DNA from: an uncultured Candidatus Saccharibacteria bacterium
GTDB taxonomy: Bacteria; Patescibacteriota; WWE3; UBA101185; UBA10185
Length of the DNA stretch: 64,000 nt
Assembly: GCA_964490125.1 (NCBI GenBank)
Contig: CAZBAJ010000004.1
Location: 7,662-71,661, forward strand
Reading direction: 5' to 3'
The notes beneath the pieces were generated by a model, which saw only the letters and a program-made list of their open reading frames with translations, ran no database searches and was not told the origin of the DNA. How positions within the stretch are numbered: position 1 is the stretch's first letter; each line of letters starts with the position of its first letter. Positions 938-25,596 of this stretch are shown here, in pieces. Made by a program: the position numbers and the translations under genes.

Positions 938-1308
938 CAAATAAAGTCGTCCATAACCATCTGGAAAATTTTGAAATATTTGTTTTAGAGAAATTGGTAG
1001 AGTATGAGAAGAATTTTAGAGATATACGAAGCACACTTGCTGATCACGACAGGAATTTTAAGGATATACGGAATATACTTGCGGACCACTCCGTGAAGCT
1101 AGTTAAATTGGAGGAAAAATTAGATGTGCTTGACGATAGGACGGCATTTTTACCAAAGTTGTACGACGCAGTAGATGCGTTTATGAAGGAAATTAAAGAA
1201 AGTCGAGAGGACAGGGTTTTATTGGGTACGCGCGTTGGTGAATGTGAAGACAGGTTGGCGGTTGTGGAGGAGATTTGTGCGATTAAGCCTGCTGGGAGGG
1301 CGTTTTAG
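934..1308 (+). CDS. Hypothetical small coiled-coil protein, paralog 3 (124 aa)
   Basis: ORF track. N-terminal VVHNHLENFEIFVLEKL and C-terminal REDRVLLGTRVGECEDRLAVVEEICAIKPAGRAF match paralog 1. Its start overlaps the stop of paralog 2 (ATGA). Confidence 0.6.
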   Translation: MTNKVVHNHLENFEIFVLEKLVEYEKNFRDIRSTLADHDRNFKDIRNILADHSVKLVKLEEKLDVLDDRTAFLPKLYDAVDAFMKEIKESREDRVLLGTRVGECEDRLAVVEEICAIKPAGRAF

Positions 1309-2331: not shown

Positions 2332-2340
2332 TTTGATAAA

Positions 2341-5055: not shown

Positions 5056-5076
5056 AACCTAGCTATCTTATCAGCT

Positions 5077-7104
5077 TTACATGCTTGCGACAAGTACAGG
5101 AGCTATCAAAAGCGCCACAATTTGGACGATCTTCATCATGGGATTAAGCGCAGGACCTGCGGTGTCTTTTAACGGGTCGCCCACGGTGTCGCCAACCACG
5201 GCAGCTTTGTGAGTCTCGCTACCCTTACCTCCAAAGTTACCGTCCTCTACATATTTTTTAGCGTTATCCCAAGCTCCACCTGTGTTGCACATAAAAAATG
5301 CCATCAAAAGTCCGACAACAACAGAACCTGCCAAGAACCCACCCAATGCCTCTACGCCTAAAAATCCAACAACTACGGGTGATAACACTACAATGGCCGC
5401 CGGAATAACCAATTCTTTTTGGGCGGCCAAGGTCACGATTTCTACTGCTTTAGAGTAATCCGGCAAGGCTTTTCCTTCCATAATGCCAGGAATTTCCTTA
5501 AATTGTCGTCTGACTTCTTCTACTACCGCAAAGGCTGCCCGTCCAACTGAACCAATAAGTCGCGAGCTAAATAAAAACGGCAGCGACCCGCCTAAAAGCA
5601 CGCCAACAAAAACTATCGGTTGGGCAATATCTATGGCAGATAAACCTGTGACTTCAAAATAGGTGGCGAATAGAGAGCTGGCTGCAACAGCTGCCGAACC
5701 TACTGCAAAACCCTTGGTTAAAGCTTTGGTAGTGTTACCAACCGCATCTAAACTGCCCGTAACTTTGGCGGCTTTGTCGGAAAGTCCGCACATTTCCACA
5801 AGACCTTGGGCGTTATCGGAAATAGGTCCAAAAGTATCTAACGCCATAATAATTCCCGTGGTAGCAAGCATGCCCATGCCCGCCAGTGAAATACCGTAAA
5901 AGCCTAATAAGGCGTAGCCGGCGTAAATGGTAGCGCAGACGACCAAAACGGAATAAAAAGTTGATTCCATGCCGTAACCAAGACCGGAAATAATATTTGT
6001 ACCTGCCCCGGTTTGGGACGATTTAGAAATACCTACAACAGGTTTTTCTCCAGGTCCGGTGTAGTACTTGGTAATAAATAAAAGCGCAATCATGGCGACA
6101 ATACCGCTAACGGCGGCAAGTCCGGCTTTAGGTTCGCCAAGCAAGTAAATTCCAAGTAACATGAAAATGACTACGGCAGAAACTGCCGACACGCCAAAAC
6201 CTCTAATTAAGGGATTAAGCGGATTTTCGTCTTCACTTTTGGCCTTAACAAAGAATGTACCTAAAATAGAAGTAAGTACCGCGCCGGATCTTGCCAAGAG
6301 CGGGAAAACCACGCCTTTAAGACCAAACATCTGTCCCCCTAAAATCATGGCTGCAACAATAGTAAGCGCGTACGACTCAAAAACATCAGCAGCCATACCG
6401 GCGCAGTCGCCTACATTGTCGCCCACATTATCCGCAATGGTAGCGGGATTTCTCTTGTCGTCCTCCGGGATACCTGCCTCTACTTTACCAACTAAATCCG
6501 CGCCAACATCCGCAGCTTTGGTAAAAATTCCCCCGCCGACTCTCATAAACAGGGCTAAAAGAGCGGCCCCAAATCCGTAACCTACCAAAACGGTGGTGGC
6601 ATAGTGGGCAACTGCCTCCGGTCCCTGTGAGATATAAGTAAAGTAAGAGTACATGTAAATTACCGACACGCCCAAAAGTCCTAGTCCAACAACTAACATG
6701 CCGTTTACCGTACCTGCGCCAAAAGCGGTTTTTAGTGCTGGATTTAGACCCTTTAGCGCGTTTTCCGCTGTTCTAACATTTGCCTTTACTGCAATCCACA
6801 TACCAAAGTAACCTATAACGCCACTAAAAATGGCTCCCATTAAAAAGGTTACGGCGGTGCCCAAGCTTAAAGCAAGAGCAATAACCGTAGCAAGAATAAC
6901 CATTATGGGAATAACAATAGAGAACTGTTTTCTTAAATATGCCATTGCACCATCACTTATGGCTTTGCCCACGCTGGCAAGTTCCGCGTTTTCTACTTTT
7001 TGGGCGGTAATTTTTTTAGAAAGAAAGAATCCGTAGGCTAGGGCTATTAAAGCCGTAATTGGAGCCCCGTACAACGCTATTAATTGAATGTCTATTGTTC
7101 CCAT
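5077..7104 (-). CDS. hppA: Membrane-bound H+-translocating pyrophosphatase, K+-independent type
   Basis: Contains GDNVGDCAGMAADVFESY and GDTVGDPLKDTAGPALN motifs and many TM segments. The GNTTKA motif (Lys) is the K+-independent signature. Confidence 0.85.
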   Translation of the reverse strand: MGTIDIQLIALYGAPITALIALAYGFFLSKKITAQKVENAELASVGKAISDGAMAYLRKQFSIVIPIMVILATVIALALSLGTAVTFLMGAIFSGVIGYFGMWIAVKANVRTAENALKGLNPALKTAFGAGTVNGMLVVGLGLLGVSVIYMYSYFTYISQGPEAVAHYATTVLVGYGFGAALLALFMRVGGGIFTKAADVGADLVGKVEAGIPEDDKRNPATIADNVGDNVGDCAGMAADVFESYALTIVAAMILGGQMFGLKGVVFPLLARSGAVLTSILGTFFVKAKSEDENPLNPLIRGFGVSAVSAVVIFMLLGIYLLGEPKAGLAAVSGIVAMIALLFITKYYTGPGEKPVVGISKSSQTGAGTNIISGLGYGMESTFYSVLVVCATIYAGYALLGFYGISLAGMGMLATTGIIMALDTFGPISDNAQGLVEMCGLSDKAAKVTGSLDAVGNTTKALTKGFAVGSAAVAASSLFATYFEVTGLSAIDIAQPIVFVGVLLGGSLPFLFSSRLIGSVGRAAFAVVEEVRRQFKEIPGIMEGKALPDYSKAVEIVTLAAQKELVIPAAIVVLSPVVVGFLGVEALGGFLAGSVVVGLLMAFFMCNTGGAWDNAKKYVEDGNFGGKGSETHKAAVVGDTVGDPLKDTAGPALNPMMKIVQIVALLIAPVLVASM

Positions 7105-11354: not shown

Positions 11355-13133
11355 ATGTTTATAGATTCAATAAATCCAAAAACAACCTTTGAGGACTTTT
11401 TGCTGGAAAAAGGTTTAATTGACGAGGCAAAGTACACACAATTAAAGACCGACCTTACTAAATCTCCAGGTAATACTGCCGAAGTTGTGTATAAAAGCGG
11501 TTTTTTGACGGACGAGGCTTACGCCAAAGCATACTCCGACTTCTACTCCGTCCCATATATTTCTTTATTGGAAAAAAAGTTTGACGAGGAATTAATTAGT
11601 AAAATTCCGGTGCAATTAGCAAAAACATATGCGCTGGCGCCTTTTTTGTACGACGGTGAGCAAAATATTTTGCATCTAGCCATGCGGGATCCGTTGGACT
11701 TGCAGTTTATTACCTTTTTAGAAAAAAAGCTGGGTTACAAGATTATTGCCTATATTTCCCCGCCCAGCGAGTTGGCTAAGGTGGTAGATGAAACCTTTGG
11801 TAAGTCTATTAAAGAAGAGGTCACTCAAGCTTTAGAGGAAATTAATCAAACCACGCTAAAGATTGAAGAGTCAGGTCAGTCTTTAGAAAGCATAGGTTCA
11901 CTTAAAGACGCTCCTGTTGCCAGAATAGTTAATATCCTGTTGGAGTCGGCGGTAAAGGGTGGGGCTTCTGATATTCATTTGGAACCGGGTGAGGATAATA
12001 TGCGCATTAGATATAGGGTGGACGGTATTTTAAGTGAGCGACACATCTTGCCAAAAGCGGTGCAGGATAGTTTAGTTGCCCGCATTAAAATTTTGTCCAA
12101 CTTAAAAATTGACGAGAAAAGAATTCCCCAGGATGGTAGGTTTAAAGTCCAGGTGGGCGACACTTTTACGGACTTGCGGGTTTCTACTTTGCCCACAGTG
12201 AACGGTGAGAAAGTAGTGATTAGGTTATTAAAGGACGAAGCAAATATTTACACTTTTAAGGATTTAGGTTTGGGCGGGCTTTCCCTTAAGCGGTTTGAGG
12301 AAGGTCTGTTAAAGTCAAACGGAATTATTATTATTACCGGACCAACCGGTTCCGGAAAAACAGTAACCTTAGCAACGGCGCTTTCTAAACTTAACAGCGT
12401 AAAAGTAAATGTGGTGACTTTGGAAGACCCCGTGGAAATTAAAATTAAAGGCGTCAATCAAGTGCAGATTAACCCCCAAGCAGGGTTAACATTTTCTTCC
12501 GGTTTACGGTCCTTTTTGCGCCAGGATCCCAACATTATTATGGTAGGAGAAATTAGGGACGGTGAAACTGCGGAGTTGGCTATTCATGCCGCCCTTACAG
12601 GTCACTTAGTTTTGTCGACATTACACACAAACTCCTCTGCTGGGGCAATTCCCAGGCTTATTGACATGGGAGTAGAAAACTTTTTGTTGGCGTCAACCTT
12701 AAATGTAGTGTTAGCGCAAAGGCTGGTCCGCAGAGTGTGTAATGACTGTAAACTTGCATACGATCCGCCGGAAGACTTGTTAAAAGAAGTTAAAGTTGTT
12801 TTAGAAAGCATTGGCAATACCCAGCTTTTAGAGTCGCGCGACAAACAGATGTTGGAATCTATTAAAAAGGTTGGTGCGGGTTCCATAAAACTTTATAGAT
12901 CTGTAGGTTGTAACAAATGTAATGATACCGGTTACAAAGGTCGGTCCGGTATTTACGAAGTCCTCCAAGTGTCAGAAAAAATAAGAACTTTAATAATTGA
13001 CAAGGGTACAGAGTCCGATATAAACAAAGTAGCCACAAGCGAAGGTATGATAACTTTGTTGCAGGACGGTTATTTAAAGGCTTTGGAGGGAGTTACCACT
13101 CTGGAGGAAGTATTAAGGGTTGCAAAGGAGTAA
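11355..13133 (+). CDS. pilB: Type IV pilus assembly ATPase PilB (GspE family)
   Basis: Has a GspE_N domain, Walker A GPTGSGKT and a CxxC...CxxC zinc motif (CNDC...CNKC). Length is 592 aa. Confidence 0.85.
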   Translation: MFIDSINPKTTFEDFLLEKGLIDEAKYTQLKTDLTKSPGNTAEVVYKSGFLTDEAYAKAYSDFYSVPYISLLEKKFDEELISKIPVQLAKTYALAPFLYDGEQNILHLAMRDPLDLQFITFLEKKLGYKIIAYISPPSELAKVVDETFGKSIKEEVTQALEEINQTTLKIEESGQSLESIGSLKDAPVARIVNILLESAVKGGASDIHLEPGEDNMRIRYRVDGILSERHILPKAVQDSLVARIKILSNLKIDEKRIPQDGRFKVQVGDTFTDLRVSTLPTVNGEKVVIRLLKDEANIYTFKDLGLGGLSLKRFEEGLLKSNGIIIITGPTGSGKTVTLATALSKLNSVKVNVVTLEDPVEIKIKGVNQVQINPQAGLTFSSGLRSFLRQDPNIIMVGEIRDGETAELAIHAALTGHLVLSTLHTNSSAGAIPRLIDMGVENFLLASTLNVVLAQRLVRRVCNDCKLAYDPPEDLLKEVKVVLESIGNTQLLESRDKQMLESIKKVGAGSIKLYRSVGCNKCNDTGYKGRSGIYEVLQVSEKIRTLIIDKGTESDINKVATSEGMITLLQDGYLKALEGVTTLEEVLRVAKE

Positions 13134-13166: not shown

Positions 13167-14228
13167 ATGAAAGTAAACGCCAGCATATTATTAGAGAAGT
13201 GCTTAAGTCTTAATGCGTCGTCCATGCACTTGTCCGTAGGAAACCCGCCGGTAGTTAGAATTCACACCAAAATTTCTAGAATTACAGACATGGACATTTT
13301 GACGGTTGAGGATGTTGAGCTTTTTATTTCTCAAACTTTATCTAAAGAACAAAAAGACGCTTTTGAACTTTCTAAAGAAACGGATTTTTCTATTGCTTTG
13401 GGAAACAAAGCTCGATTTAGGGTAAATGTTTATTACCAAAAGGGTTATCCAGCGGTATCGTTAAGACTTATTCCAATGATTATTCCTCATTTGGACGACT
13501 TACATCTACCGTCAATTCTTAAAAATATTGCTGATTTAAAACAGGGTCTTGTTTTAGTAGTTGGACCTACCGATCACGGTAAATCTACCACGCTTGCCAG
13601 TATGTTGCAGTACATTACAGAGACTAGATCGGAACATATTATTACCATAGAGGACCCCATTGAATTTGTCATTCCGTCCAACAAGTCTTTAGTAGAACAG
13701 CGGGAAATGTATTTGGATACACTTTCTTGGGCAAACGCTTTGCGGGCAATTTTGCGCCAGGATCCCAACATTATTATGATTGGTGAAATGCGTGACCAAG
13801 AAACCATAGAGGCGGCAATGAACATTGCAGAAACTGGTCATTTGGTTTTTTCTACCTTGCACACCAACTCCGCGTCGCAAAGTATAGAAAGAATTGTGTC
13901 TTCATTCCCCAAAGAAAAACAGTCCTACATTAGAAGCCAGTTTGCGGATGTTCTAGAAGCCATAATTTCCATGCGACTTATTCCCTCCCCTCAAATGGGT
14001 GTGTGTCCTGCCGTAGAAGTCCTACTTAATAATTACGCAGTTAAAAATCTTATTAGAGAAGGCAAAAGCTACCGCGTAGATGACATTATTTTAACCAGCG
14101 CGGAGCAAGGCATGATTTCCCTAAACTCGTCGCTTAAGATTTTGTACGACAAGCAGTTAATTTCTTCTGACGATGCTTTTAGATATAGTTTAAATCCGGA
14201 GGAATTGCGCAGGATTATTAAGGTTTAG
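13167..14228 (+). CDS. pilT: Type IV pilus retraction ATPase PilT
   Basis: Has Walker A GPTDHGKSTT and the PilT-family core (ILRQDPNIIMIGEMRD, HLVFSTLHTN). Length is 353 aa. Confidence 0.8.
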   Translation: MKVNASILLEKCLSLNASSMHLSVGNPPVVRIHTKISRITDMDILTVEDVELFISQTLSKEQKDAFELSKETDFSIALGNKARFRVNVYYQKGYPAVSLRLIPMIIPHLDDLHLPSILKNIADLKQGLVLVVGPTDHGKSTTLASMLQYITETRSEHIITIEDPIEFVIPSNKSLVEQREMYLDTLSWANALRAILRQDPNIIMIGEMRDQETIEAAMNIAETGHLVFSTLHTNSASQSIERIVSSFPKEKQSYIRSQFADVLEAIISMRLIPSPQMGVCPAVEVLLNNYAVKNLIREGKSYRVDDIILTSAEQGMISLNSSLKILYDKQLISSDDAFRYSLNPEELRRIIKV

Positions 14229-14234
14229 GGCATC

Positions 14235-15434
14235 ATGAGGTATAGATTTACAGCAAAAGATCAAAATGCCAAGTTAGTTTATGGCGACATAGAGGCTGGC
14301 TCCACAGATAAAGTAGTGGACATCTTAAAAGACCGTGGACTTTTTGCCCTGGACATAACGGAAATGAGTCCGGGTTTTAAGGCGTTTGCCATAAGGGGCG
14401 GACGGGTGACGGAATCGGAAGTTGTGTTATTCACAAGGCAGTTTGCCACCATGGTTGCCGCGGGGCTTTCTGTTTCCAGATGTTTAGAAGTTTTGTTGGA
14501 CCAAACCACCAACCCCAAATTTAAAGAGGTTATTTCCGAGATTCAGTCTCAGGTAACTTCTGGCATTGCACTTTCCGCTGCTTTTGGTAGGTATCCTAAT
14601 ATTTTTCCTACTGCGTATATTGCACTTTGTCGTGCGGGTGAGTCTTCTGGCAAATTGGATGAAATTTTACTAAAGCTGGCCGACACTATGGAGAAAGACA
14701 AAGATATCAAGTCCAAATTTAAAACGGCGTTAATTTACCCCACCATTATTCTAGTTGCCATGGTGGGTGTGTTTGTACTAATGATGGTAGTGGTGGTGCC
14801 AAAACTTGCGGAGCTATACGCGTCCATGAGCGTTGACCTGCCCTTTATAACCAAGGTTATGATAGGTATTAGTAACTTTATGGTCAATTACAAGCTGCTT
14901 TTACTCCCCATGGTGTTTGGCGCCTACTTTTTATTTAAATATTTTATGCAGACGGCAAAAGGCAGAGCGTTTTGGTCGGAGTTTACCTTTGCCATGCCTG
15001 TTATTGGTCCCGTAAATAAACTTAAAGAGTACACGCTGTTTTCTAGAACATTAAGTATGCTTTTAACCGCGGGTGTAAATATGGTGGAGGCATTAAATAT
15101 TTCTGGCGATGTAGTTACTAATTTGGACTTAATAGCCGGGGTAAAAAACAGCACCTTGTTGGTAGAGCGCGGTGTTCCCCTGTCGGAGGCTATGGGTAAA
15201 AGCGCAACCTTCCCACCCATGGTTTATAAAATGGTAGAGGTTGGGGAAGAAACCGGTAATTTGGATTCTGTACTTGCCCGTGTTTCTGTTTATTACGCTA
15301 ACGAAACTGATACAGCAGTAGCCAGACTTTCCGCCGCTTTAGAGCCGTTTATTTTAGTGTTCTTGGGTGTGGGTGTGGGAGTCTTGATTTTGTCTATTAT
15401 TACGCCTATATATAAAATTACAACTTCTATTTAA
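14235..15434 (+). CDS. pilC: Type IV pilus platform protein PilC (GspF family)
   Basis: Two GspF repeats and three TM segments; 399 aa. Confidence 0.8.
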   Translation: MRYRFTAKDQNAKLVYGDIEAGSTDKVVDILKDRGLFALDITEMSPGFKAFAIRGGRVTESEVVLFTRQFATMVAAGLSVSRCLEVLLDQTTNPKFKEVISEIQSQVTSGIALSAAFGRYPNIFPTAYIALCRAGESSGKLDEILLKLADTMEKDKDIKSKFKTALIYPTIILVAMVGVFVLMMVVVVPKLAELYASMSVDLPFITKVMIGISNFMVNYKLLLLPMVFGAYFLFKYFMQTAKGRAFWSEFTFAMPVIGPVNKLKEYTLFSRTLSMLLTAGVNMVEALNISGDVVTNLDLIAGVKNSTLLVERGVPLSEAMGKSATFPPMVYKMVEVGEETGNLDSVLARVSVYYANETDTAVARLSAALEPFILVFLGVGVGVLILSIITPIYKITTSI

Positions 15435-15460: not shown

Positions 15461-16009
15461 ATGACAAAAGGGAAATACACAAAGGGATTTACGTTGGTTG
15501 AATTGTTGGTGGTTATTGCTATTATAGCCATTTTGGCTGGTGCGTTGTTTTTGGTTATTAACCCAGCCGCCTTATTAGCAAAATCCAGAGACTCTAAGAG
15601 AATTGGAGAATTATCGAGCGTCAATAAGGCTATTGCGGCTGCACTCGCAGATAGTAAGATAATTCTTAGTACTAATGCTGTCAATTTAAATGACACAAAC
15701 ACAACTGTTTTAGGTTTGGGTTGGGTTCGCTTTACAAGGCCTGGTACACCGGCTACAGGTCCTGGCATTGGGGACTACATGCCAGTTCTTCCAAGGGATC
15801 CTTTAAGAGGTGCAGGAGTAACACCGGTTACTAGTTACTACTACAGATTTAGAAGTACCACTACTGCATGGAAACTGGCGGCCTGGGTGGAGAGTATAGA
15901 TAGCGCACAAATCGCTACCAATGATGGAGGTATATCGAATACTTGCACAACGGTACCTAATACCGCCTGTCAGTATGAAATAGGAACAGATTTAACTTTG
16001 GTAATGTGA
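15461..16009 (+). CDS. Type IV pilin (prepilin with N-terminal cleavage/methylation motif), candidate major pilin
   Basis: Leader MTKGKYTKG|FTLVELLVVIAIIAILAG. The RBS GGGAGG lies 9 nt upstream. A strong GC hairpin follows. Confidence 0.75.
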   Translation: MTKGKYTKGFTLVELLVVIAIIAILAGALFLVINPAALLAKSRDSKRIGELSSVNKAIAAALADSKIILSTNAVNLNDTNTTVLGLGWVRFTRPGTPATGPGIGDYMPVLPRDPLRGAGVTPVTSYYYRFRSTTTAWKLAAWVESIDSAQIATNDGGISNTCTTVPNTACQYEIGTDLTLVM

Positions 16010-16172: not shown

Positions 16173-17048
16173 ATGGTGTTTTTAAGTAGCTTATTATCTT
16201 CGCTAATCGGTCTATTCATCGGCTCGTTTTTAAATGTAGTCGCGGATAGGCTGTGTCAGGAGAAAAACCCCTTCAAGGGCAGATCCGTTTGCGATTCGTG
16301 CGGGCAAACTTTAAAGCCCCAGCACATGGTGCCCATTTTGTCGTACATATTATTAAGGGGTAAGTGCGCGTATTGTCACCAAAAACTGTCGCTCTACTAC
16401 CCTTTTTCCGAACTCCTCACCGGCATGTTTTTTGCTTTTGCTGCCTATTTTTCCCGCTTTGCGTCCTCCCCTAGCCTGTTAACCGGCTTGCATTTTGGCT
16501 ACCTTATTGTGGTTTTTAGCGTGTTCGTGGTCATTTTTTTGTCAGACTTAAAATATCAAATTATTCCAAACGAGGTTGTTTATTTTGGTATTGCTTTTGT
16601 TTTTTTGGCGCAGGTGGCAAATTTGGGCTTTTGGGCTTATAAATACCACGCCATGTTGCAAAGCGACACTTTGGGTCAGTATCTTTTGCAGGGCGACTTT
16701 TTTAAGGACAATGTACTGCGGGAGGTTAAAAGTTTTGGTTACAATATTGCCAGCGGACTTGGGATCTGTCTGTTTTTTTATTTGCTGGTGGTGTTGACGC
16801 GTGGTCGCGGGATGGGCGGAGGCGATGTTAAGTTGGGTCTTTTGATTGGACTTTTTAACGGTTTTCCCAACGGTGTAATTGCCTTGTTTTTGGCTTTTAT
16901 TACGGGTTCGATTGTAAGTATTGGACTTATGGTGGCGTCCAAAAAAGGGTTAAAGGATGTGGTGCCGTTTGGTCCTTTTTTAATTTTAGGCAGTGTGCTA
17001 TCTTTAATGTATGGAGACTGGATTTTTACCAGGTATATTTCGCTTTAA
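16173..17048 (+). CDS. pilD: Prepilin peptidase PilD (A24 family)
   Basis: Has a CxxC...CxxC zinc motif (CDSCGQ...CAYCHQ) and the catalytic Asp motif GGGDVKL. 291 aa, polytopic. Confidence 0.8.
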   Translation: MVFLSSLLSSLIGLFIGSFLNVVADRLCQEKNPFKGRSVCDSCGQTLKPQHMVPILSYILLRGKCAYCHQKLSLYYPFSELLTGMFFAFAAYFSRFASSPSLLTGLHFGYLIVVFSVFVVIFLSDLKYQIIPNEVVYFGIAFVFLAQVANLGFWAYKYHAMLQSDTLGQYLLQGDFFKDNVLREVKSFGYNIASGLGICLFFYLLVVLTRGRGMGGGDVKLGLLIGLFNGFPNGVIALFLAFITGSIVSIGLMVASKKGLKDVVPFGPFLILGSVLSLMYGDWIFTRYISL

Positions 17049-17937
17049 CCGTTTGGGTTTATTTTCTTTTTTCATTTTTGTTATTAGTGCTTTTGGACTT
17101 GGTACGACAGGAGAAGCTTACGCGATCGAATGGTTTTCCGTTTACGGGTCGGGTGTATTATCGGGTGGCGACATAACTAACAACGGGATACCAAATATCC
17201 CTCCGACCGGTTTCAACAAAGATGTCGTCCAACACCCTGGTTCTGAAAATATTACCACTTACGGTTCGTTGATAAGTTCTGGTGGTCAAACAACTAACGG
17301 CGATGACGACGCATATGTAAAAAACCTTGTTCTCACACCCAAAGCTTTATCCATAGATAGCCTACTTCTTGGTGCTACTAATATTACAGATTGTAGTACG
17401 ATATTTAATAACAGGCTCAATCCCAACATTTTATATAAGATTTCAGGCCCATATACTGCCTCATGTTTATCCCAATCTTTCATTGCTGATACAGATAGAA
17501 CATATGGATTGGAGTCTGACGGTTTAGTAATAATCGCTGTGGATTTTACTTCCGGATTGAATTTACGAAAAACACTAAAATCTACAAGTTCTAATCAGAG
17601 GATTCTACTTTTGACAAATAGTACAACCAGTATAGTTAGCAATGTCGGAACCCCCGTCGGGGTGGCTACTTTTGATACGCAAAATCAATATGACTTGGCA
17701 ATGATTACAACTTCAACATTCACTGTTCAGGACAGTGCAACATTAACATCCATTCTTGAGGGTCCTTTGATCTCTGGGGGCGCAGTAACTTTAGGTCGCA
17801 ATTATGCCGCCGCAACCTACCCTGGTGTTTTCGTAAAATACAACCCGTTTTATGTTGCCGAGTTGTCAAAAAAGGGTACAGCAGGTCTTGCTATAAAAGG
17901 ATTACTAGAATCCAAAACTACCTGGAGGTATGACTAA
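17011..17937 (+). CDS. Hypothetical secreted protein in the pilus locus
   Basis: N-terminal signal peptide with an AYA|IEW cleavage site; Thr/Ser-rich. Its start overlaps the pilD end. Confidence 0.5.
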   Translation: METGFLPGIFRFNRLGLFSFFIFVISAFGLGTTGEAYAIEWFSVYGSGVLSGGDITNNGIPNIPPTGFNKDVVQHPGSENITTYGSLISSGGQTTNGDDDAYVKNLVLTPKALSIDSLLLGATNITDCSTIFNNRLNPNILYKISGPYTASCLSQSFIADTDRTYGLESDGLVIIAVDFTSGLNLRKTLKSTSSNQRILLLTNSTTSIVSNVGTPVGVATFDTQNQYDLAMITTSTFTVQDSATLTSILEGPLISGGAVTLGRNYAAATYPGVFVKYNPFYVAELSKKGTAGLAIKGLLESKTTWRYD

Positions 17938-18851
17938 TGACTAACTTGCGATCCGCCCAACAAGGTCAAACATTATTAATTGTGATTTTTGCCATGTCGC
18001 TGGGGTTGTTAGTAATTGTAAATACTGCCGGACGGACTTTGAGTTCGGTTGCCAGAACCACCCAAACCAATTTTTATCAAAAAGCAACTGCGGTCGCAGA
18101 GGGCGGTGCGGAAGTATTTTTAGCCAAACCGATTACCGATTATCCCGCTTTAACATCGACATGCGCAATTTCAAAACTTGCTGATCTGGCTACTGTCGAC
18201 GGTGCCAGTTGTACCATACCGTTTACAGAATCAAAGGCGTATTTGGGTGTAGAGGCTTATCCCGTTTCGTTAGCAAAGGAAAGTTTAAATATAAAAAGTC
18301 AGCCGGGAGAAACCATTCATATAAACCTGAATGACCTAAATTTTGACGCTGATTTTATTCAAGTTTGCTGGAAGGGCTTAGGGATTAAGGATTATTCCGC
18401 TTCGCACTACTTTTACTATCACGGCTTGATTGGTGATTACGAAGTCGATAAAGATTTACTCACCTGTAATACCAGTTTTACTGCTTGGTGCAAAAATTTA
18501 GGGGGAAATGTGGGAAATGTTAGTCAGGCAGTTGCTAACGGTGACTATTCTTGTTATTCCATAAATGTACAAAGTGACAGCGTCGCTCTTAGAATTTTTA
18601 CTTTTCCTGACGGTGCGGAGTATACAATAGAGGCGTATAAACTGGTTGCAGGAAACCCCGTAAAAACTACATTTCCCCAACAAGGTTATCGGATAATCTC
18701 CATCGGCGAGGTTACCGGCGCGGGAGGCACTTCTCTAATGTCCAAAAAAGCTACCAGAAAAAAGTTGACGGTGGAAAAAACCTTCCCCTACCCTGCTGGA
18801 CCGTGGTGGGATTTTGCGGTGACTTCTATAAACGGAATGGTGTCGCCCTAA
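17937..18851 (+). CDS. PilX-N-like membrane-anchored, Cys-rich pilus-associated protein
   Basis: N-terminus QQGQTLLIVIFAMSLGLLVIVNTAGRTL...AVAEGG resembles the PilX_N domain. Eight Cys in the extracellular part. The ATGA overlap with the upstream gene indicates coupling. Confidence 0.5.
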   Translation: MTNLRSAQQGQTLLIVIFAMSLGLLVIVNTAGRTLSSVARTTQTNFYQKATAVAEGGAEVFLAKPITDYPALTSTCAISKLADLATVDGASCTIPFTESKAYLGVEAYPVSLAKESLNIKSQPGETIHINLNDLNFDADFIQVCWKGLGIKDYSASHYFYYHGLIGDYEVDKDLLTCNTSFTAWCKNLGGNVGNVSQAVANGDYSCYSINVQSDSVALRIFTFPDGAEYTIEAYKLVAGNPVKTTFPQQGYRIISIGEVTGAGGTSLMSKKATRKKLTVEKTFPYPAGPWWDFAVTSINGMVSP

Positions 18852-18894: not shown

Positions 18895-19308
18895 ATGAAA
18901 GCTAACTGCTCGACTAAAAATTACGGATTTACTTTAGTTGAACTTTTGGTGGTAATTTCCATAATTTCTATCTTAGCCGGCGCAGCTTTTATGATTATTA
19001 ACCCCGTTAGATTGCAAAAAAAATCACGAGAGGCTGTGTTAAGGTCAAATACCGCTAAACTGTGTTCCGCTTTGTTTGCTTGTGCTTCTGTAAAAAATGT
19101 GCTGACTGATTGCAGTACAGGTGACTTTTCTAAGTTGAAAGTTACCGTTCCGAATGATCCTTTAGGCGCTTCCTACACCATCACCCCCTCTGATCCTGTC
19201 ACCATCACTGGTACACTTAATTCGTGCGTTTATACATGTAATTTTAATTTTTTAAATGGAGATGTATTAAATTTACCAAACACCCCTCCGGCTGGGTGTG
19301 AGCAATAA
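18895..19308 (+). CDS. Prepilin-type minor pilin/pseudopilin
   Basis: Leader MKANCSTKNYG|FTLVELLVVISIISILAG; Cys-rich C-terminal half. Confidence 0.7.
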   Translation: MKANCSTKNYGFTLVELLVVISIISILAGAAFMIINPVRLQKKSREAVLRSNTAKLCSALFACASVKNVLTDCSTGDFSKLKVTVPNDPLGASYTITPSDPVTITGTLNSCVYTCNFNFLNGDVLNLPNTPPAGCEQ

Positions 19309-19311
19309 ATA

Positions 19312-19776
19312 ATGAGTAACAGTTCCAATAAAATTAAATATGCAGGTCAAGCAGGTTTTACTTTGGTTGAGCTTTTGGTAGTAGTAAGCCTTGTGGGAAT
19401 TTTGGCGGGTGTAACAATATCTATTATAAATCCCGTTAAACAGAGGCAAGTGGCGGAGGACGGAGTTAAACAGTCTAATTTACAAAAGCTTGCTTTAGGG
19501 GTAGAAGCTTACGGCAATGCCAATTCTAAATATCCTGCCGCAGCTGGTGGTAAGCCCGACCCAGCCGATGCCGATGTCGGACAATTTATTAAGCAGTATC
19601 CTGACGGGGAACCTGCTGGATCTACTTATACCTACTATAACGATTCGACAAATGGAACATTTAGTATTGTGGTTATGAAGTCCGAGGTCGCAACGGCGTG
19701 TTTTAAATACCATTCCAGTTGGGGTAAAATCCAGTCGTGTACTAACAATTGCAACGACGGAACTACTGGATGTTAG
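19312..19776 (+). CDS. Prepilin-type minor pilin/pseudopilin
   Basis: Prepilin leader ...AGQAG|FTLVELLVVVSLVGILAG. Confidence 0.7.
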   Translation: MSNSSNKIKYAGQAGFTLVELLVVVSLVGILAGVTISIINPVKQRQVAEDGVKQSNLQKLALGVEAYGNANSKYPAAAGGKPDPADADVGQFIKQYPDGEPAGSTYTYYNDSTNGTFSIVVMKSEVATACFKYHSSWGKIQSCTNNCNDGTTGC

Positions 19777-19796
19777 ACTTGTTAACTAAAAGAAAA

Positions 19797-20303
19797 ATGT
19801 CAAAACATAAATACAACAAAGGATTTACATTGGTAGAACTTCTTATAGCTATTTCCTTGATAGCCATTTTGAGTGGGGTATTACTTTCGGTTTTAAATCC
19901 CATAGGTATCCAAAAGAAGGCTCGTGATTCACAGAGGGTATCAGATTTGTCAAAAATTAAGGTTGCTTTGGAAAATTATTTTGCCGACAATAGAAAGTAC
20001 CCAAATACTGCGCCTGTGACAGCTGATACATGGGTAAAAACTTCTGCGCTTTCAACTTTTTTAGAAAATGGTAAGTACATAAATAAACTGCCCACTGATC
20101 CAAAACCCACGGTAACTGCAAATTGCGCTGTAAATGGTTGGCGTGAATATTATTACAAAACAAATGCTAACGGGACTGTTTATATATTGTCCGCTAATTT
20201 AGAGATAGCGCCGTCAACGGCATCGACCTGTCCCTACACAAGTCCTAATTGTTCTGGATGTGTTACCACGGGTGTTAATGCTTACTATACAACTATTGAT
20301 TGA
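19797..20303 (+). CDS. Prepilin-type minor pilin/pseudopilin
   Basis: MSKHKYNKG|FTLVELLIAISLIAILSG. The start is at an internal Met of ORF 19749..20303. Confidence 0.65.
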   Translation: MSKHKYNKGFTLVELLIAISLIAILSGVLLSVLNPIGIQKKARDSQRVSDLSKIKVALENYFADNRKYPNTAPVTADTWVKTSALSTFLENGKYINKLPTDPKPTVTANCAVNGWREYYYKTNANGTVYILSANLEIAPSTASTCPYTSPNCSGCVTTGVNAYYTTID

Positions 20304-20327
20304 GGTTGATTTTTAGAAAGGAGATAT

Positions 20328-20816
20328 ATGAAAACGCAAATACTCAAAGACGCAAACAGAGGCTTTACCCTAGTGGAAGTTTTAGTAGCGGTTGGGGTTT
20401 TGGCGGTAGGGTCGCTGGCTTTTTTGCCTTCGTTTAGTGGCGCAAATAAAGAAAAAGCCCTTGCCCAGTCGGTAGAAAACGCTAAAGATGCCATAGCCAC
20501 AGCTAGAAACCGCGCGCTTACAAATGTTGGAAACCCCGGATCGGCAGGTTCGTACAATTATTCTGGGGTAAAATTTACAGCTGGGAGTTCTGATTACGAG
20601 ATATTTAGGTCGACAACTGCTGATGTGTCCACCTGTACAAGTCTTCCCGCTAGTGGAATATCAGTTTTGGATAGTCAGGGGACACTTCTTAACGGTGTGC
20701 AGTCCAGAATACCTTCAGGAGAGTCGCCAACTTGTTTCTTTTTTGAATTTGGATCCGGTGATGCCTATGTTACTAAAGGTACCGCCTCCGCACCTGCCAA
20801 TGCTTGCAATAATTAA
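20328..20816 (+). CDS. Prepilin-type minor pilin/pseudopilin
   Basis: MKTQILKDANRG|FTLVEVLVAVGVLAVGSLAF. Confidence 0.65.
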   Translation: MKTQILKDANRGFTLVEVLVAVGVLAVGSLAFLPSFSGANKEKALAQSVENAKDAIATARNRALTNVGNPGSAGSYNYSGVKFTAGSSDYEIFRSTTADVSTCTSLPASGISVLDSQGTLLNGVQSRIPSGESPTCFFFEFGSGDAYVTKGTASAPANACNN

Positions 20817-21288
20817 AAACAACAAATCAGGTTACGCGCTGTTAGAAATTTTATTGGCGTTTGCGGTTGCCACAATTATTATTACAGGTATGGTTTCACT
20901 GGGGGTTTCTACCGTTAGGGCGGTTACGGTAAACAAGGCTTATTCCGAAGCAGGAAAAATTGCGCAAAGAGAGGTTGACCGACTTAAATTACTGCGCGAC
21001 ACCTACCCTGCCACGGCTACCAGAACTTCTTGGGAAAATTTTTACGACGAAGTTATCAGCCAGTGCGGTACAAACTGTTATGTAGTCACAGGTGCTACTT
21101 TTACTAAAGCACCTGGTACATACACGGTTGGGACCGCGCCATCTACCGTAAGCTACTATTTCAAGTTCACTTCTGCAAGTGTTACAAGTCCAGCTAAATA
21201 TGAGGTAATTACAACATGGAGCGTAGGAAATCCCCCAGAAAAAACATATAAAATCGAAGGAGTCTTTACAAATTGGAAGGAGATCTAA
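20800..21288 (+). CDS. Prepilin-type minor pilin/pseudopilin (GspJ/PilW-like leader)
   Basis: MLAIIKNNKSG|YALLEILLAFAVATIIITG. The start is at an internal Met of ORF 20623..21288. Confidence 0.55.
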   Translation: MLAIIKNNKSGYALLEILLAFAVATIIITGMVSLGVSTVRAVTVNKAYSEAGKIAQREVDRLKLLRDTYPATATRTSWENFYDEVISQCGTNCYVVTGATFTKAPGTYTVGTAPSTVSYYFKFTSASVTSPAKYEVITTWSVGNPPEKTYKIEGVFTNWKEI

Positions 21289-21894
21289 ATGACGATAGCA
21301 AAAATTAATAAATCTGCTAGACCAATTGGATTAATCAGATCAAAAGAAGTCCTGCAAAATAAGGGCTTTACATTAATGGAAGTTGTTATTGCGGTTAGTT
21401 TGTTGGCAATTGTTTCCGTAGTTTCTGTAAGTATTGTGGCAAATTTGCTAAGAAGCTCGGTAAAGTCGCAATCGGCCATTGATGTTGAACAAACTTCTAA
21501 TTTTGTCCTCCTGAAACTTAAGAATGATGTGGCAAAAGCCCATAAGATAAGTGTTACAGCCAATACTTTAACCATCTATCAAGCTAATGCGTCCTCTCCC
21601 ACCGTGACTTATACGGTTGGGCAATGTAATGCCGGCTTGAGTCTAAATTGCATCCGTCGTGGTGGCGTGGATCTTACTGATTCGTCAAGCGATCCGTCCG
21701 ATACTACTAAACCCAACAAATCAGCTGTTCAAATTGATACAGCACCGACCTACTTTAGTTCTGTATCCGATGCTTCCGGTAATGTGTTAGCCGTCAATGT
21801 TGCTATAAAATTTAGTAAGCCTGGCGTTGCCACAACAGGCAATTTTTCCGGTGAGACCGTTTTAGACACAACCATTGTCTTACCCAATCAATAA
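21289..21894 (+). CDS. Prepilin-type minor pilin/pseudopilin
   Basis: Long leader ...VLQNKG|FTLMEVVIAVSLLAIVSV. Confidence 0.65.
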   Translation: MTIAKINKSARPIGLIRSKEVLQNKGFTLMEVVIAVSLLAIVSVVSVSIVANLLRSSVKSQSAIDVEQTSNFVLLKLKNDVAKAHKISVTANTLTIYQANASSPTVTYTVGQCNAGLSLNCIRRGGVDLTDSSSDPSDTTKPNKSAVQIDTAPTYFSSVSDASGNVLAVNVAIKFSKPGVATTGNFSGETVLDTTIVLPNQ

Positions 21895-21909: not shown

Positions 21910-22944
21910 ATGCCCGCAGTAATTGGTCTAGATATTGGAAATTCTGCCTTTAGAGCCGTAGAAGTTTCCGTCAAAAGCAAAACAAATCCTCCGCAGTATA
22001 TTTTAGAACGCGCTTTGGTGTGCGACAAATGTGTGGACCCCGATTCAAAAAAGATGACGGAAAACTTAAAACACTTTGTAAAAGACGCGGGATTCAGCAC
22101 AAAAAATGTGGTTATGGCTCTGCCGGAGTCGCATGTATTTTCTACAATTTTAAACATTCCACTCCAAACGGAAAAAGAAGTTAAAAACTATTTAGAAATA
22201 GAAGGCTCAAAAATTTTTCCCCGTCCGCTTTCTGAACTGGTGTACAGCTTTGTAATTTTAGGTCCAAATGAATCCAACAAAACCGAAGTTGATGTTAATG
22301 TGGTGGCAAGCGGTAAAGAATTTGTTAGCGGACTTTTTGATACGGCAAAAAATGCCGGACTTACTGTTTTGGGAATTGAATCGGAGGCGTACGCTATTGT
22401 AAGAGCGCTCTCAAGGAGTCAAATTTTAGCCCCAAACGACGCCCTGCTTGTGGTAAATGTTGGCTCGGTAGATGTGGATATGATGGTCCTGCGCAACGGT
22501 TATGTAAGATTTTCTAGAAATGTAGGACTTGGTGGGACCACATTTAACAAGGCAATTGCCCAGGCGTTAGATGTTACCGAAGACCAAGCGGAAGAGTACA
22601 AAAAGAGCTATGGTTTGGATAATGTTGCCATGGAGGGAAAAATTGTTACAGCCATGAAGCCGGTGGCAGAAACTTTAATTAGTGAAATAAAACGGACTAT
22701 GAATTTTTATTCGTCCAGAAACAGCTACTGTGAATTTAAAAAGGTTCTGTTTAGTGGAGGCTCTGCCGTGATGCCCGGTCTTTTAGCATACAGCGCAGAG
22801 AATTTAGGTATGGAGGTGGAACTTGCCAATCCGTTTGCCAGCATAGAATTTTCTCCCCGCGTAGCAAGTAGGCGGGATGAGTTATTAAATTTAGGACCTG
22901 TGTACACAGTTGCCATGGGTCTTGCATTAAAGGAAATAGTCTAA
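21910..22944 (+). CDS. pilM: Type IV pilus assembly protein PilM (actin-like ATPase)
   Basis: Contains MPAVIGLDIGNSAFRAVEV and the actin/FtsA-fold motifs; 344 aa. Confidence 0.75.
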   Translation: MPAVIGLDIGNSAFRAVEVSVKSKTNPPQYILERALVCDKCVDPDSKKMTENLKHFVKDAGFSTKNVVMALPESHVFSTILNIPLQTEKEVKNYLEIEGSKIFPRPLSELVYSFVILGPNESNKTEVDVNVVASGKEFVSGLFDTAKNAGLTVLGIESEAYAIVRALSRSQILAPNDALLVVNVGSVDVDMMVLRNGYVRFSRNVGLGGTTFNKAIAQALDVTEDQAEEYKKSYGLDNVAMEGKIVTAMKPVAETLISEIKRTMNFYSSRNSYCEFKKVLFSGGSAVMPGLLAYSAENLGMEVELANPFASIEFSPRVASRRDELLNLGPVYTVAMGLALKEIV

Positions 22945-22956
22945 TACTATAGATGT

Positions 22957-23547
22957 ATGAAGCAAATTGATCTCACTCCCCCGCAGGAGATTAAGCGCAA
23001 AAGAACGCAGTATGTGGTTGGTGCTTCTACTAAGATTTCTGTTGTATTACTGCTTATTGCCGTAGGTGTTGCCGTTTACTATTTTACTAAAGAAACCAAC
23101 CTTCAAACCCAAATTGCTTCTCTGGACAGTCAAAAAACAGAATTAACCGCAAGGGTACAAAGTATGCAGGAGGTAGAAAATTATGCTAAAAAACTTTCTG
23201 GCAAGTACTTTTTGCTTCAAAAGTATTTAGAAAGTCGGTTAAAGTACTCTTCTGTTATGTTGGAGCTATTAGCACGCGTGCCTACGGAAATCTCGTTTGA
23301 CAATTTAAGCTTTGAGGGCGCGGGTAAAAGAACCACCATCGCGGGCTCGTCCAAGGATGTTATCTCCGTCTCTGCCTTTGTCAACCGACTTGCTAAACCC
23401 GGTAACGCTTCCAGCGAATCTGCGGTTACACTAGAAGGCAAAAATGCTTTTACGGATGTTAGGCTGGACTCATTAAGTGTTGACGAGGATAAGGGCGTGG
23501 CGTATTCGGTGTCGTTTAAAATTAACGAGGAGGCATTTTTAAAGTGA
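22957..23547 (+). CDS. pilN: Type IV pilus assembly protein PilN-like
   Basis: Single N-terminal TM after a basic leader, then a coiled-coil. Positioned immediately after pilM. Confidence 0.6.
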   Translation: MKQIDLTPPQEIKRKRTQYVVGASTKISVVLLLIAVGVAVYYFTKETNLQTQIASLDSQKTELTARVQSMQEVENYAKKLSGKYFLLQKYLESRLKYSSVMLELLARVPTEISFDNLSFEGAGKRTTIAGSSKDVISVSAFVNRLAKPGNASSESAVTLEGKNAFTDVRLDSLSVDEDKGVAYSVSFKINEEAFLK

Positions 23548-24311
23548 TTTTAACTAACAAATTACATGTAAAAACAAACAGCGAGACGGGTATGCAGATT
23601 ATTGGGGAAATTGAAGAGTTTGTAGTTAACTTTATTTTACCTATTATTTTGCTTGCGGTTGCCGTGGGAATTTTTGCGTTGTATGTATCGCCCACCCATA
23701 AAAAATTACCAGCCATGAAGACGGAAGTAGAAACCAAAACCTCCGAGGTTACCGTTTTGCAGGCAAAAGTAGACCAGCTTACTGCTTTAGAGCAAAACAA
23801 GGAGCTAGTGCTGGGCGACTTGGTTAAGATGTCTTGGGCTTTAGAAGAGCGCGACAAAGTACCAGAACTTACAGAACAGGTGCGACTTATGAGTGCCGAT
23901 TCTAAAGTAGTGTTTAAATCTTTGGATTATGCCAATGCTAATAAGGGCGACATTGTAAGCGTTGTAGCTCCGACCGATGCTCTTACCCCGGATCCAGAGC
24001 TGTATCGTGAGGAAAAAGTTAATGTGGATGTTGAAGTTAAGGATTTTACCTCCGCCATAGCCTTTTTAAAAACCGCGGAAAATTCTATTAGACTTTTTAA
24101 GGTTGAGAGTTTAAAAATTTCTACGCTAAATCAGGCAAATAAGGCGGACATTGTTATGGCGTCGCCCTACTTGAATCCCGCTTTTTCTACTTACTCACAG
24201 TCCGCCGCGCCTATTGATTTAAAAAACTCGGCTTATCGATCTTTTATGGAGAGGTTGGATACTTTTAAAAACTACGCCAAGGATATTGACGCCACTTTAC
24301 CCAAGATATAA
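23544..24311 (+). CDS. pilO: Type IV pilus assembly protein PilO-like
   Basis: N-terminal TM plus coiled-coil. Overlaps pilN by 4 nt. Confidence 0.55.
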   Translation: MILTNKLHVKTNSETGMQIIGEIEEFVVNFILPIILLAVAVGIFALYVSPTHKKLPAMKTEVETKTSEVTVLQAKVDQLTALEQNKELVLGDLVKMSWALEERDKVPELTEQVRLMSADSKVVFKSLDYANANKGDIVSVVAPTDALTPDPELYREEKVNVDVEVKDFTSAIAFLKTAENSIRLFKVESLKISTLNQANKADIVMASPYLNPAFSTYSQSAAPIDLKNSAYRSFMERLDTFKNYAKDIDATLPKI

Positions 24312-24362: not shown

Positions 24363-25235
24363 TTAGAGATGATCAGCGTCATTGCGATTCGCCGTAGGTG
24401 GAGAAGCAATTCCTTTCCACTTGTCGATTTTTGCATGATTACCAGAAATTAAAACTTCCGGCACCTTTAAGCCTTGCCACTCTTCCGGTCGACTATATTG
24501 TGGATGTTCCACTTGGTCAGGTCGACTTGGGTTAAATGATTCGTTAATAAGCGCCTCCGGATTGTCTATTGCCTCGGGAAGTAGCCGGACTACGCTTTCC
24601 ACAATCGCCATAGTGGCTACCTCGCCCCCGCTTAGTACATAGTTGCCAATGGATATTTCTTCCACGGTTATTTGTTTTAGCACACTGTCTGAATTTGTTG
24701 TTGAGTCGATTTTTTGGAATCCAGGCGCGCGACTTTTAAGACTGCATGCATTCTTAAAGTAGTCGATGACTCTCTGATCCACGCCTTCATACCGTCCACA
24801 AACAATAACTAAATGGTCCACTTGGGAAAATTCCGATGCTTTGTTTTGGTTATAAGTTTTTCCACGAGGGGTGAGAAAGACAACCCGCACACCGCCTTGT
24901 GGAGTACGGTCGTTTCGATCCGCCGTAGGCGGATAAGCAATCTGGATCTTAGTATCAACCTTGCGGTTCATGATTACTTGGGATTTATTTAGGGCAAATG
25001 TTATAGCATCATTAATCGGTTCGGGACGGAGAATCATCCCGGGACCACCACCGTAGGGTGGTGAATCCACCGTTCCCCGCTTGTCAATCGCAAAGTCGCG
25101 TAAGTTAATAAAGTCAATACGCACTAAACCCTTTTCCAGCGCACGACTAATTGGCAGATGTTGTAAATGGTTAGTAAAAATGTCTGAGAAAAGCGTAATG
25201 ACGGAAATGTGCAGTTTTGGCTTGGTATTAGGCAT
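24363..25235 (-). CDS. trmD: tRNA (guanine37-N1)-methyltransferase TrmD
   Basis: Has the SPOUT/TrmD motifs (HISVITLF, CGRYEGVDQRV, YTRPEEWQG). The start MPNTKPK was chosen 2 nt after the KH-protein stop. Confidence 0.8.
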   Translation of the reverse strand: MPNTKPKLHISVITLFSDIFTNHLQHLPISRALEKGLVRIDFINLRDFAIDKRGTVDSPPYGGGPGMILRPEPINDAITFALNKSQVIMNRKVDTKIQIAYPPTADRNDRTPQGGVRVVFLTPRGKTYNQNKASEFSQVDHLVIVCGRYEGVDQRVIDYFKNACSLKSRAPGFQKIDSTTNSDSVLKQITVEEISIGNYVLSGGEVATMAIVESVVRLLPEAIDNPEALINESFNPSRPDQVEHPQYSRPEEWQGLKVPEVLISGNHAKIDKWKGIASPPTANRNDADHL

Positions 25236-25596
25236 CGTTTGACGCGGGATCCTTGGGATCTGAATCCGATGGTTCTGATTCTGTTGGACTGTCGATTCCA
25301 TCACCTCGGTCATCTCTATTAGTTTCGAAAGTATCGTTTTTATCGCCAGCCGTCCTTGGTTGCCCGTAGTCAACCAGTTCAACATCCACCCATACATTTT
25401 CCTTTACCGCTTTAGCTTTTGCCAGTGAACGAATGGAATTAATGGTACGACCTTCTTTTCCTATAACCAAGCCCATATCGGAGGGGTCAACGGTAATTAA
25501 GTACCTAAAATTGCTCCCCTCTCCCGATTCTTCCACCGCCACATTTTGAGGATTTTTAACTAGCGAGGTCACTAAAAATTGGATAAAGTCTTTCAT
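25228..25596 (-). CDS. KH-domain RNA-binding protein (YlqC/UPF0109 family) with acidic C-terminal tail
   Basis: Contains VKNPQNVAVEE...VIGKEGRTINSIRSLAKA. Classic position between rpsP and trmD. Confidence 0.7.
   Translation of the reverse strand: MKDFIQFLVTSLVKNPQNVAVEESGEGSNFRYLITVDPSDMGLVIGKEGRTINSIRSLAKAKAVKENVWVDVELVDYGQPRTAGDKNDTFETNRDDRGDGIDSPTESEPSDSDPKDPASNDA

Follow-up and report, generated by a model that had tools for sequence, protein, structure and literature searches.

Two coupled genes between pilD and the minor pilins

The stretch analysed here, a window of 64 kb (64,000 nucleotides) of contig CAZBAJ010000004.1 from an uncultured Candidatus Saccharibacteria bacterium, contains a run of plus-strand genes from pilB to a pilO-like gene which, judged by open reading frames (ORFs) and family searches, is a complete type IV pilus operon. 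Two of its genes, ORF1 and ORF2, lie between the prepilin peptidase gene pilD and a cluster of prepilin genes. From computational evidence we propose, with a probability of roughly 55%, that their products form a two-protein module at the tip of the pilus. The ultra-small Patescibacteria need to attach to host cells, and type IV pili have been implicated in this binding. To our knowledge, the composition of the pilus tip in this group is barely known, and no PilY1 equivalent in Patescibacteria was described in the literature searched. An earlier reading made from the letters alone (the sequence-only reading) had singled out the two genes as secreted, and their positions, lengths and place between pilD and the prepilin genes were all borne out. 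They are listed here with the evidence in brackets, a vertical bar marking a presumed cleavage site.

17011-17937, plus strand: ORF1, secreted non-pilin, 308 residues (homology, signal peptide, pairing with ORF2)
17011-17124, plus strand: predicted Sec signal peptide of ORF1, residues 1-38, putative site AYA|IEW (sequence, invariant A38/W41)
17371-17934, plus strand: conserved core of ORF1, about residues 121-308 (alignment motifs, model)
17937-18851, plus strand: ORF2, candidate PilX/GspK-class minor pilin without Glu at mature position +5 (Glu5), with a beta-sandwich (jelly-roll-like) head, 304 residues (family signature, model)
17937-18122, plus strand: ORF2 leader, residues 1-10 with Gly10 last, and hydrophobic alpha-1 helix, residues 6-62 in the model (124-member alignment, model)
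18213-18782, plus strand: beta-sandwich head of ORF2, residues 93-282 (model, Cys conservation)

ORF1 starts 38 nucleotides inside the end of pilD, an overlap that recurs in close relatives. At the junction TAATG the stop codon TAA of ORF1 and the ATG of ORF2 have one nucleotide in common, and a GGAGG stands 10 nucleotides upstream of the ORF2 start; ORF1 and ORF2 are thus tightly coupled. The coupling was anticipated by the sequence-only reading, whereas the four-nucleotide ATGA overlap that it assumed was not found.

ORF2 begins with a class III (prepilin) leader that has Gly at position -1 and is followed by a hydrophobic helix (MTNLRSAQQG|QTLLIVIFAMSLGLLVIV); the N-terminus of the window protein reads MTNLRSAQQG|QTLLIVIFAMSLGLLV. 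A word-indexed search returned 19 relatives at 49-63% identity, all of them unnamed Patescibacteria proteins, and a full hidden Markov model scan with the alignment of these 19 gave a family of 391 cluster representatives at E<=1e-3, and of 155 when the threshold was E<=1e-10. Almost without exception they are 270-320 residues long and matched from end to end. Family-level counts were taken from an alignment of 124 of these representatives. The N-terminal consensus is (basic leader)-G-Q-(A/T/V)-L-L-F-V-V-V-A-M-T-I-A-L-A-V-G, in which 123 of the 124 members have the presumed -1 Gly (G10) and as many the +1 Gln (Q11). Mature position +5 is Phe, Ile or Leu (Ile in the window protein) and Glu in none of the 124; the seven other pilins of the locus all have Glu5 (G|F/Y-T/A-L-x-E). 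Motifs specific to the family are AAAEGG.E in the helix region (E55 and E59, the latter invariant across the family) and a C-terminal PYLP..FDF. Because a Gly-ending leader, a pilin-type helix and the absence of Glu5 define the capping minor pilins PilX, GspK and ComGG (bioRxiv 10.64898/2026.02.12.705559, summary, and established knowledge), and ORF2 appears to combine all three, we read it as a capping minor pilin of the PilX/GspK class.

NCBIfam GspK is matched by 11 of the 124 members at E<=0.01 (best 9.4e-6) and Pfam PilX_N by two (5.8e-5), so that the PilX_N-like N-terminus previously ascribed to ORF2 holds at the level of the family and not for the window protein itself. The tapirin N-terminus is matched by 10 members; the window protein reaches 11.2 bits against the tapirin model NF051896, over residues 4-62 only, with a cut-off of 600 bits. 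When the family alignment was compared with a minor pilin of the window by hhalign, G|Q fell in register with G|F at a probability of 1.3%, which is not significant, and profile searches of PDB sequences with five family alignments gave chance-level matches or none. The AlphaFold2 (AF2) model, with a predicted local distance difference test (pLDDT) score of 72.9, consists of a 57-residue helix (6-62) followed by a beta-sandwich. The close subfamily of ORF2 (>=49% identity) was not found in any of 185,579 species-representative genomes, and a metagenome scan found seven close loci, in a few metagenome-assembled genomes and short metagenome contigs only; the lineage that bears it seems rare or poorly sampled.

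The N-terminus of ORF1 has positively charged R11 and R14, a hydrophobic core at residues 15-33 and then AYA|IEW, of which A38 and W41 are invariant in an alignment of 10 homologues. A distant homologue carries a textbook signal peptide (...PAKAFA|A), and that of longer homologues is also clear. By these features the ORF1 N-terminus is a predicted Sec-type signal peptide and not a prepilin leader, with the putative site that the sequence-only reading had given. ORF1 was also considered as a non-canonical prepilin and rejected: its Gly4 is followed by FLPGIFRFNR and no hydrophobic helix, in a stretch dual-coded with the C-terminus of pilD. The conserved core carries C128, C152, EGP, YPG..V.YNP.Y and a C-terminal GL..SK..W.Y[DE]. 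ORF1 and ORF2 are not paralogues by hhalign (probability 0.2%).

The description of ORF1 as Thr/Ser-rich is accurate (T 11.7, G 10.4, S 9.7%), whereas that of both proteins as Cys-rich is not. ORF1 has two Cys (0.65%, close to the 0.75% averaged over the long ORFs of the window), and in ORF2 six were counted instead of eight (2.0%, about 2.6 times the mean), which is not above pilD or the neighbouring pilins. Cys-richness was therefore discarded as a defining trait, pilD and several small pilins having a Cys content equal to or higher than that of ORF2. Cys-76, Cys-92, Cys-144 and Cys-206 of ORF2 are conserved throughout the family and Cys-177 and Cys-185, beside a low-confidence loop, are specific to the subfamily; these positions suggest two family-wide disulfides and one that is subfamily-specific. 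By spacing alone the bonds would join Cys-76 to Cys-92, Cys-144 to Cys-206 and Cys-177 to Cys-185.

Pairing of the two families and variation of ORF1

Direct word-indexed searches with ORF1, profile included, gave four to six relatives. Because they remained almost empty, the ORF1 family was recovered from the genes upstream of ORF2 homologues, using all related loci whose sequence covers an ORF2-family gene and the region upstream of it. Leaving the window aside, the adjacent upstream gene carries the ORF1-family domain in 28 of 28 such loci (hmmsearch 1e-12 to 1e-115). The junction is usually an overlap or a gap of a few bases, with exceptions in L018 (about 53 nucleotides) and L021 (about 213 nucleotides). 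The pairing persists down to 23-28% ORF2 identity and in four loci away from pilus genes, and six close relatives have the identical synteny pilD-ORF1-ORF2-pilins-pilMNO. Since they are conserved as a pair, ORF1 and ORF2 are real genes and not chance ORFs. The pair is flanked in most loci by pilD on one side and by five or six genes for Glu5 pilins on the other. The strict pairing, the GspK/PilX-type N-terminus and a PilY1-like domain layout of the ORF1 family all agree with the earlier proposal that the two genes occupy the PilX/PilY1 position as candidate tip or adhesin components.

In related loci the ORF1 domain is always found at the extreme C-terminus of proteins that bear a Sec signal. 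The upstream genes of four more distant loci encode products of 332, 522, at least 557 and at least 615 residues, whose C-terminal parts are homologous to ORF1 with hhalign probabilities of 100, 99.7, 81 and 98%, respectively, and in 14 reference-genome loci (labelled candidate division WWE3, Saccharibacteria or Patescibacteria) the upstream ORF1-family proteins mostly have 735-1320 residues. The N-terminal part of the family varies from 0 to about 1000 residues, the longest proteins reaching 1320. In the long members the Sec signal peptide is followed by Cys-rich stretches, and their extensions contain FN3-like matches, CBM60-like matches in three loci, all just below the Pfam cut-off, and one GBS_Bsp-like repeat at 42 bits, above the cut-off. 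In L016 a Cys-rich module of 200 residues is inserted between the signal peptide and the motif that adjoins the signal peptide in the window protein; on this sequence comparison window ORF1 is taken as a minimal family member made up of the signal peptide and the conserved domain, and it is the smallest one seen. The combined Gly, Ala, Ser and Thr (GAST) content, used as a measure for surface-exposed pilus proteins in the study of TM7x (PMC11623550), is 38.0% in ORF1 and 35.2% in ORF2, compared with 24-29% in PilB, PilT, PilC, PilD and PilM.

These data bear on a second function that ORF1 could have, as an accessory of pilus assembly in a single-membrane envelope, either a collar spanning the wall or S-layer or a chaperone of the cap pilin. 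Such a role would fit the start of the gene inside pilD and its translational coupling to ORF2, a window ORF1 pared down to the conserved domain and devoid of an evident binding module, and a locus with no secretin or PilP equivalent. An assembly factor would, however, be expected to have a constant size, whereas only the C-terminal domain is conserved here and the N-terminal part varies as described. Carbohydrate-binding-like, Bsp-like and Cys-rich modules are typical of surface-exposed binding proteins, the GAST composition is like that of exposed pilus proteins, and loci exist in which the pair is remote from the machinery genes. We regard the assembly role as unlikely.

Additional members of both families were observed. 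Many loci labelled WWE3 or Saccharibacteria have a second ORF2-family (PilX-like) paralogue (L018 5942-6787, L020 8506-8901, L021 8428-8847, L024 8086-8841, L019 1-474, L023 3-497), which the window lacks; in L018, the best resolved, it stands last in the minor-pilin cluster, immediately ahead of pilM. L030 (5745-8105) and L022 (1879-5058) have, downstream of the ORF2-family gene, another large gene of the ORF1 family, which suggests exchangeable tip proteins. In the close relative L001 a CarS-like gene (PF01864) and a gene of 461 codons without family separate the ORF2 homologue from the minor pilins (2469-4429).

A candidate tip module and its weighing

The module that we propose builds on what is directly observed of the genes, namely their anatomy, the N-terminal signature of the ORF2 family, the strict pairing, the C-terminal position of the conserved ORF1 domain and the exposed-type GAST composition. 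PilD would cleave ORF2 after Gly10, and the long hydrophobic N-terminal helix would then pack into the core of the fibre. The absence of Glu5 is a hallmark of the subunit that caps a minor-pilin priming complex, and ORF2 would accordingly sit at the tip, capping the complex of the downstream Glu5 minor pilins. ORF1 would be exported through Sec and its conserved domain would dock onto the ORF2 head. Conserved segments that the monomer models leave unplaced, residues 271-297 of ORF2 and 39-112 and 278-308 of ORF1, may be the contact segments. The complex would prime or plug the tip, as PilY1 does in Proteobacteria, and in relatives it would expose N-terminal modules that vary and are of Cys-rich and carbohydrate-binding types, through which the surface of the host cell would be bound.

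Several results weigh against this proposal. Window ORF2 matches no Pfam family at E<=1, PF14341 (PilX_N) included, and scores 11.5 bits against NF037980 (GspK), for which the cut-off is 130. A Gln at +1 is unusual for a substrate of prepilin peptidase, and in the ORF2 family this atypical residue is near-invariant. ORF1 and its relatives have no match in Pfam, NCBIfam or PDB sequences, window ORF1 again having no Pfam family at E<=1, and this protein is devoid of the N-terminal adhesin-type modules, which makes an adhesive role weaker than in its relatives. In four of the 14 reference loci, all of WWE3-type genomes (L026 1209-4873, L027 1174-4888, L029 1252-4858 and L031 about 1267-4882), the pair directly precedes rpsB, tsf, frr and an rseP-like gene, and no pilin or pilus machinery gene is found within 4 kb. 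Finally, for PilX1 of TM7x, a published counterpart of ORF2 by description, the authors' SignalP analysis predicted no PilD cleavage (PMC11623550).

The structural results for ORF1 belong to the same side of the balance. The model, built from six sequences, is poor, with a mean pLDDT of 49.6, about 75 at residues 113-214 and <50 at 1-112 and 278-308. In this low-confidence model the conserved core is a beta-solenoid with a flanking helix. A Foldseek search of the PDB with it returned ice-binding proteins as all 16 best matches, none of them significant (best E 0.26, TM-score <0.3). Neither 10 ORF1 members nor 10 long relatives match the Pfam family Ice_binding/DUF3494 (PF11999), profile searches of the PDB with the ORF1 family gave empty or unrelated results, and a literature search for DUF3494 together with pili found nothing. 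Structure prediction thus yielded for ORF2 a helix and a beta-sandwich, and for ORF1 a probable ice-binding-protein-type solenoid that is a lead rather than an established fold.

The four orphan loci weaken a strict association with the pilus locus and keep alive a pilus-independent explanation, in which the pair is a cell-surface adhesin complex off the fibre and an uncleaved, membrane-anchored ORF2 holds the secreted ORF1-family protein. The neighbourhood of rpsB-tsf-frr would suit such a complex, as would the Gln at +1 and the scores of window ORF2 below every pilin family cut-off. Yet the -1 Gly is as good as invariant (123/124) and the helix has the register of true prepilins, family members match GspK and PilX_N, and most loci have the pair between pilD and the Glu5 pilins. 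Orphan pilin or adhesin modules are, moreover, common elsewhere and still use a pilus, as for instance loci 3 and 4 of TM7x (PMC11623550). A complex off the fibre is therefore held to be rather unlikely. Homologues independent of type IV pilus genes, which the sequence-only reading had named as evidence against its proposal, do exist in these four loci, but they are still a pair, so that the ORF1 and ORF2 genes stay together even outside the operon. In one of them, L031, the ORF1-family gene is split at 1267-3978 into several short ORFs in different frames and may be a pseudogene or an assembly error.

A further reading takes ORF1 for a beta-helix enzyme, a lyase or depolymerase, that would remove polysaccharide of the host or of the bacterium itself to make way for the pilus. 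With no family match and no conserved catalytic residues in the ORF1 family, an enzyme is very improbable.

The tip module can be compared with several known systems. ORF2 shares the Gly-ending leader, the hydrophobic helix and the lack of Glu5 with PilX of the P. aeruginosa-type type IVa pilus, GspK of the type II secretion system and ComGG. Like members of the PilX/GspK class it is encoded with GspH/I/J-type minor pilins and pilus machinery, apart from the orphan pairs in 4/14 reference loci; in contrast to GspK, its head is a predicted beta-sandwich without the GspK-type alpha-helical insertion, and it has the near-invariant Gln at +1 and motifs of its own. In TM7x (Nanosynbacter lyticus, T4P-1) the largest pilin of the machinery locus is PilX1, for which a jelly-roll-like domain is described and a PilD signal is not predicted (PMC11623550). 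Compared by description alone, ORF2 fits PilX1 closely; no secreted partner gene is mentioned for PilX1 in PMC11623550, whereas ORF2 is accompanied by ORF1. The earlier opinion that neither protein resembles characterised tip proteins needs revision in both parts, ORF2 by its PilX/GspK-type features and its fit to the Saccharibacteria PilX1, and ORF1 by the likeness of its low-confidence model to the beta-solenoid of the Thermus tip pilin ComZ.

With PilY1/PilC of Proteobacteria and Myxococcus ORF1 shares the position of a Sec-exported non-pilin beside pilX in a minor-pilin operon, and its family shares a conserved C-terminal domain with variable adhesin-like N-terminal modules. Because the ORF1 family lacks a beta-propeller and has no PilY1 Pfam match, ORF1 is not a PilY1 homologue; the likeness is an analogy of working logic and layout. 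Window ORF1 differs further in having 308 residues and no N-terminal module. The ORF1 family itself is in no family library and in none of the literature searched, while ORF2 adds a new member to a class already known.

The solenoid lead matters because ComZ and cyanobacterial PilX both carry ice-binding-protein-like solenoids. In ComZ of Thermus thermophilus the solenoid is closest to an ice-binding protein and the pilin domain to GspK (PMC6561018), and cyanobacterial PilX is a GspK-like tip pilin whose ice-binding-protein-like solenoid has been proposed as a replacement of the PilY1 "plug" (bioRxiv 10.64898/2026.02.12.705559). In both, the solenoid is inserted in the pilin, whereas here ORF1 and ORF2 are distinct genes in each of the related loci examined: ORF1 has a predicted Sec signal peptide and no pilin helix, and ORF2 has a beta-sandwich of its own. 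The solenoid likeness of ORF1 to ComZ stems from a low-confidence model and comes without sequence similarity. Tapirins, the beta-helix cellulose-binding proteins encoded in type IV pilus loci of Caldicellulosiruptor, differ in that scores are far below 600 bits and the similarity is split between ORF1 and ORF2.

The ORF1 family would thus work after the manner of PilY1, possibly with a ComZ-like fold on a polypeptide of its own. Taken further, ORF1 and ORF2 may represent a "split ComZ", in which an ice-binding-protein-type beta-solenoid is exported separately through Sec and joined non-covalently to a GspK-like cap pilin; this extension is tentative and more doubtful than the tip module itself. 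The tip module, if real, would be a third solution to the plug on a GspK-like cap, by a separately exported, possibly solenoid protein. A split ComZ would in addition connect two known designs in evolution, tip proteins that are not pilins (PilY1) and tip pilins that bear a solenoid (ComZ, cyanobacterial PilX, tapirins). Host recognition by WWE3/Saccharibacteria episymbionts would in that case be determined by the N-terminal modules that vary within the ORF1 family. Both families are now annotated as "hypothetical", without a Pfam or NCBIfam model. An always-paired secreted family with lineage-variable N-terminal modules offers concrete candidate determinants of host specificity, and the pair is a plausible handle on how episymbionts grip their hosts; the candidate role is testable in the few tractable Saccharibacteria.

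Remainder of the operon and neighbouring genes

The other genes of the operon are as follows, with the evidence in brackets.

11355-13133, plus strand: pilB, motor ATPase (ORF; phmmer matches in related loci)
13167-14228, plus strand: pilT, motor ATPase (ORF; phmmer matches in related loci)
14235-15434, plus strand: pilC, platform protein (ORF; phmmer matches in related loci)
15461-16009, plus strand: candidate major pilin, 182 residues, KG|FTLVE with Glu at +5 (N_methyl 2.5e-9; motif register; GAST 37.9%)
16173-17048, plus strand: pilD, prepilin peptidase (A24_N_bact 6e-28, Peptidase_A24 3e-10)
18895-19308, plus strand: prepilin gene 1 of six, Glu5 (prepilin motif)
19312-19776, plus strand: prepilin gene 2 of six, Glu5 (prepilin motif)
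about 19797-20303, plus strand: prepilin gene 3 of six, Glu5 (start placed by the position of the prepilin motif)
20328-20816, plus strand: prepilin gene 4 of six, Glu5 (prepilin motif)
about 20800-21288, plus strand: prepilin gene 5 of six, Glu5 (start placed by the position of the prepilin motif)
21289-21894, plus strand: prepilin gene 6 of six, Glu5 (prepilin motif)
21910-22944, plus strand: pilM (PilM_2 Pfam match on orthologues in related loci)
22957-23547, plus strand: pilN-like gene (PilN Pfam match on orthologues in related loci)
23544-24311, plus strand: pilO-like gene (ORF)

The orthologous motor and platform genes of the related loci L003-L005 have T2SSE and T2SSF Pfam matches. The weak best matches of the six prepilin genes at 18895-21894 are GspG/H, PilV/GspI/ComGE and ComGF/GspJ. 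Two mechanically called ORFs, 19749-20303 and 20623-21288, probably start too far upstream: the prepilin motifs KG|FTLVE at residue 25 and SG|YALLE at residue 70 suggest starts near 19797 and 20800, and the second of these would overlap the 3' end of the preceding pilin gene.

In L017 a gene with AAA_14/DUF4143 domains (4266-5678), which may be mobile, is inserted between a pilin gene and pilD of the pilus operon, and an AAA_14/DUF4143 ATPase gene is present in the window at 36253-37695 (plus strand). The trmD gene of the window (24363-25397, minus strand) encodes 344 residues, compared with 218-261 in syntenic relatives, and its Pfam match is split into three stretches, pointing to an N-terminal extension or insertions. 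The match of a 411-residue ORF at 29595-30830 (minus strand) to alanyl-tRNA synthetase is confined to the catalytic part (profile positions 3-400 of 552), and this synthetase may be split or truncated.

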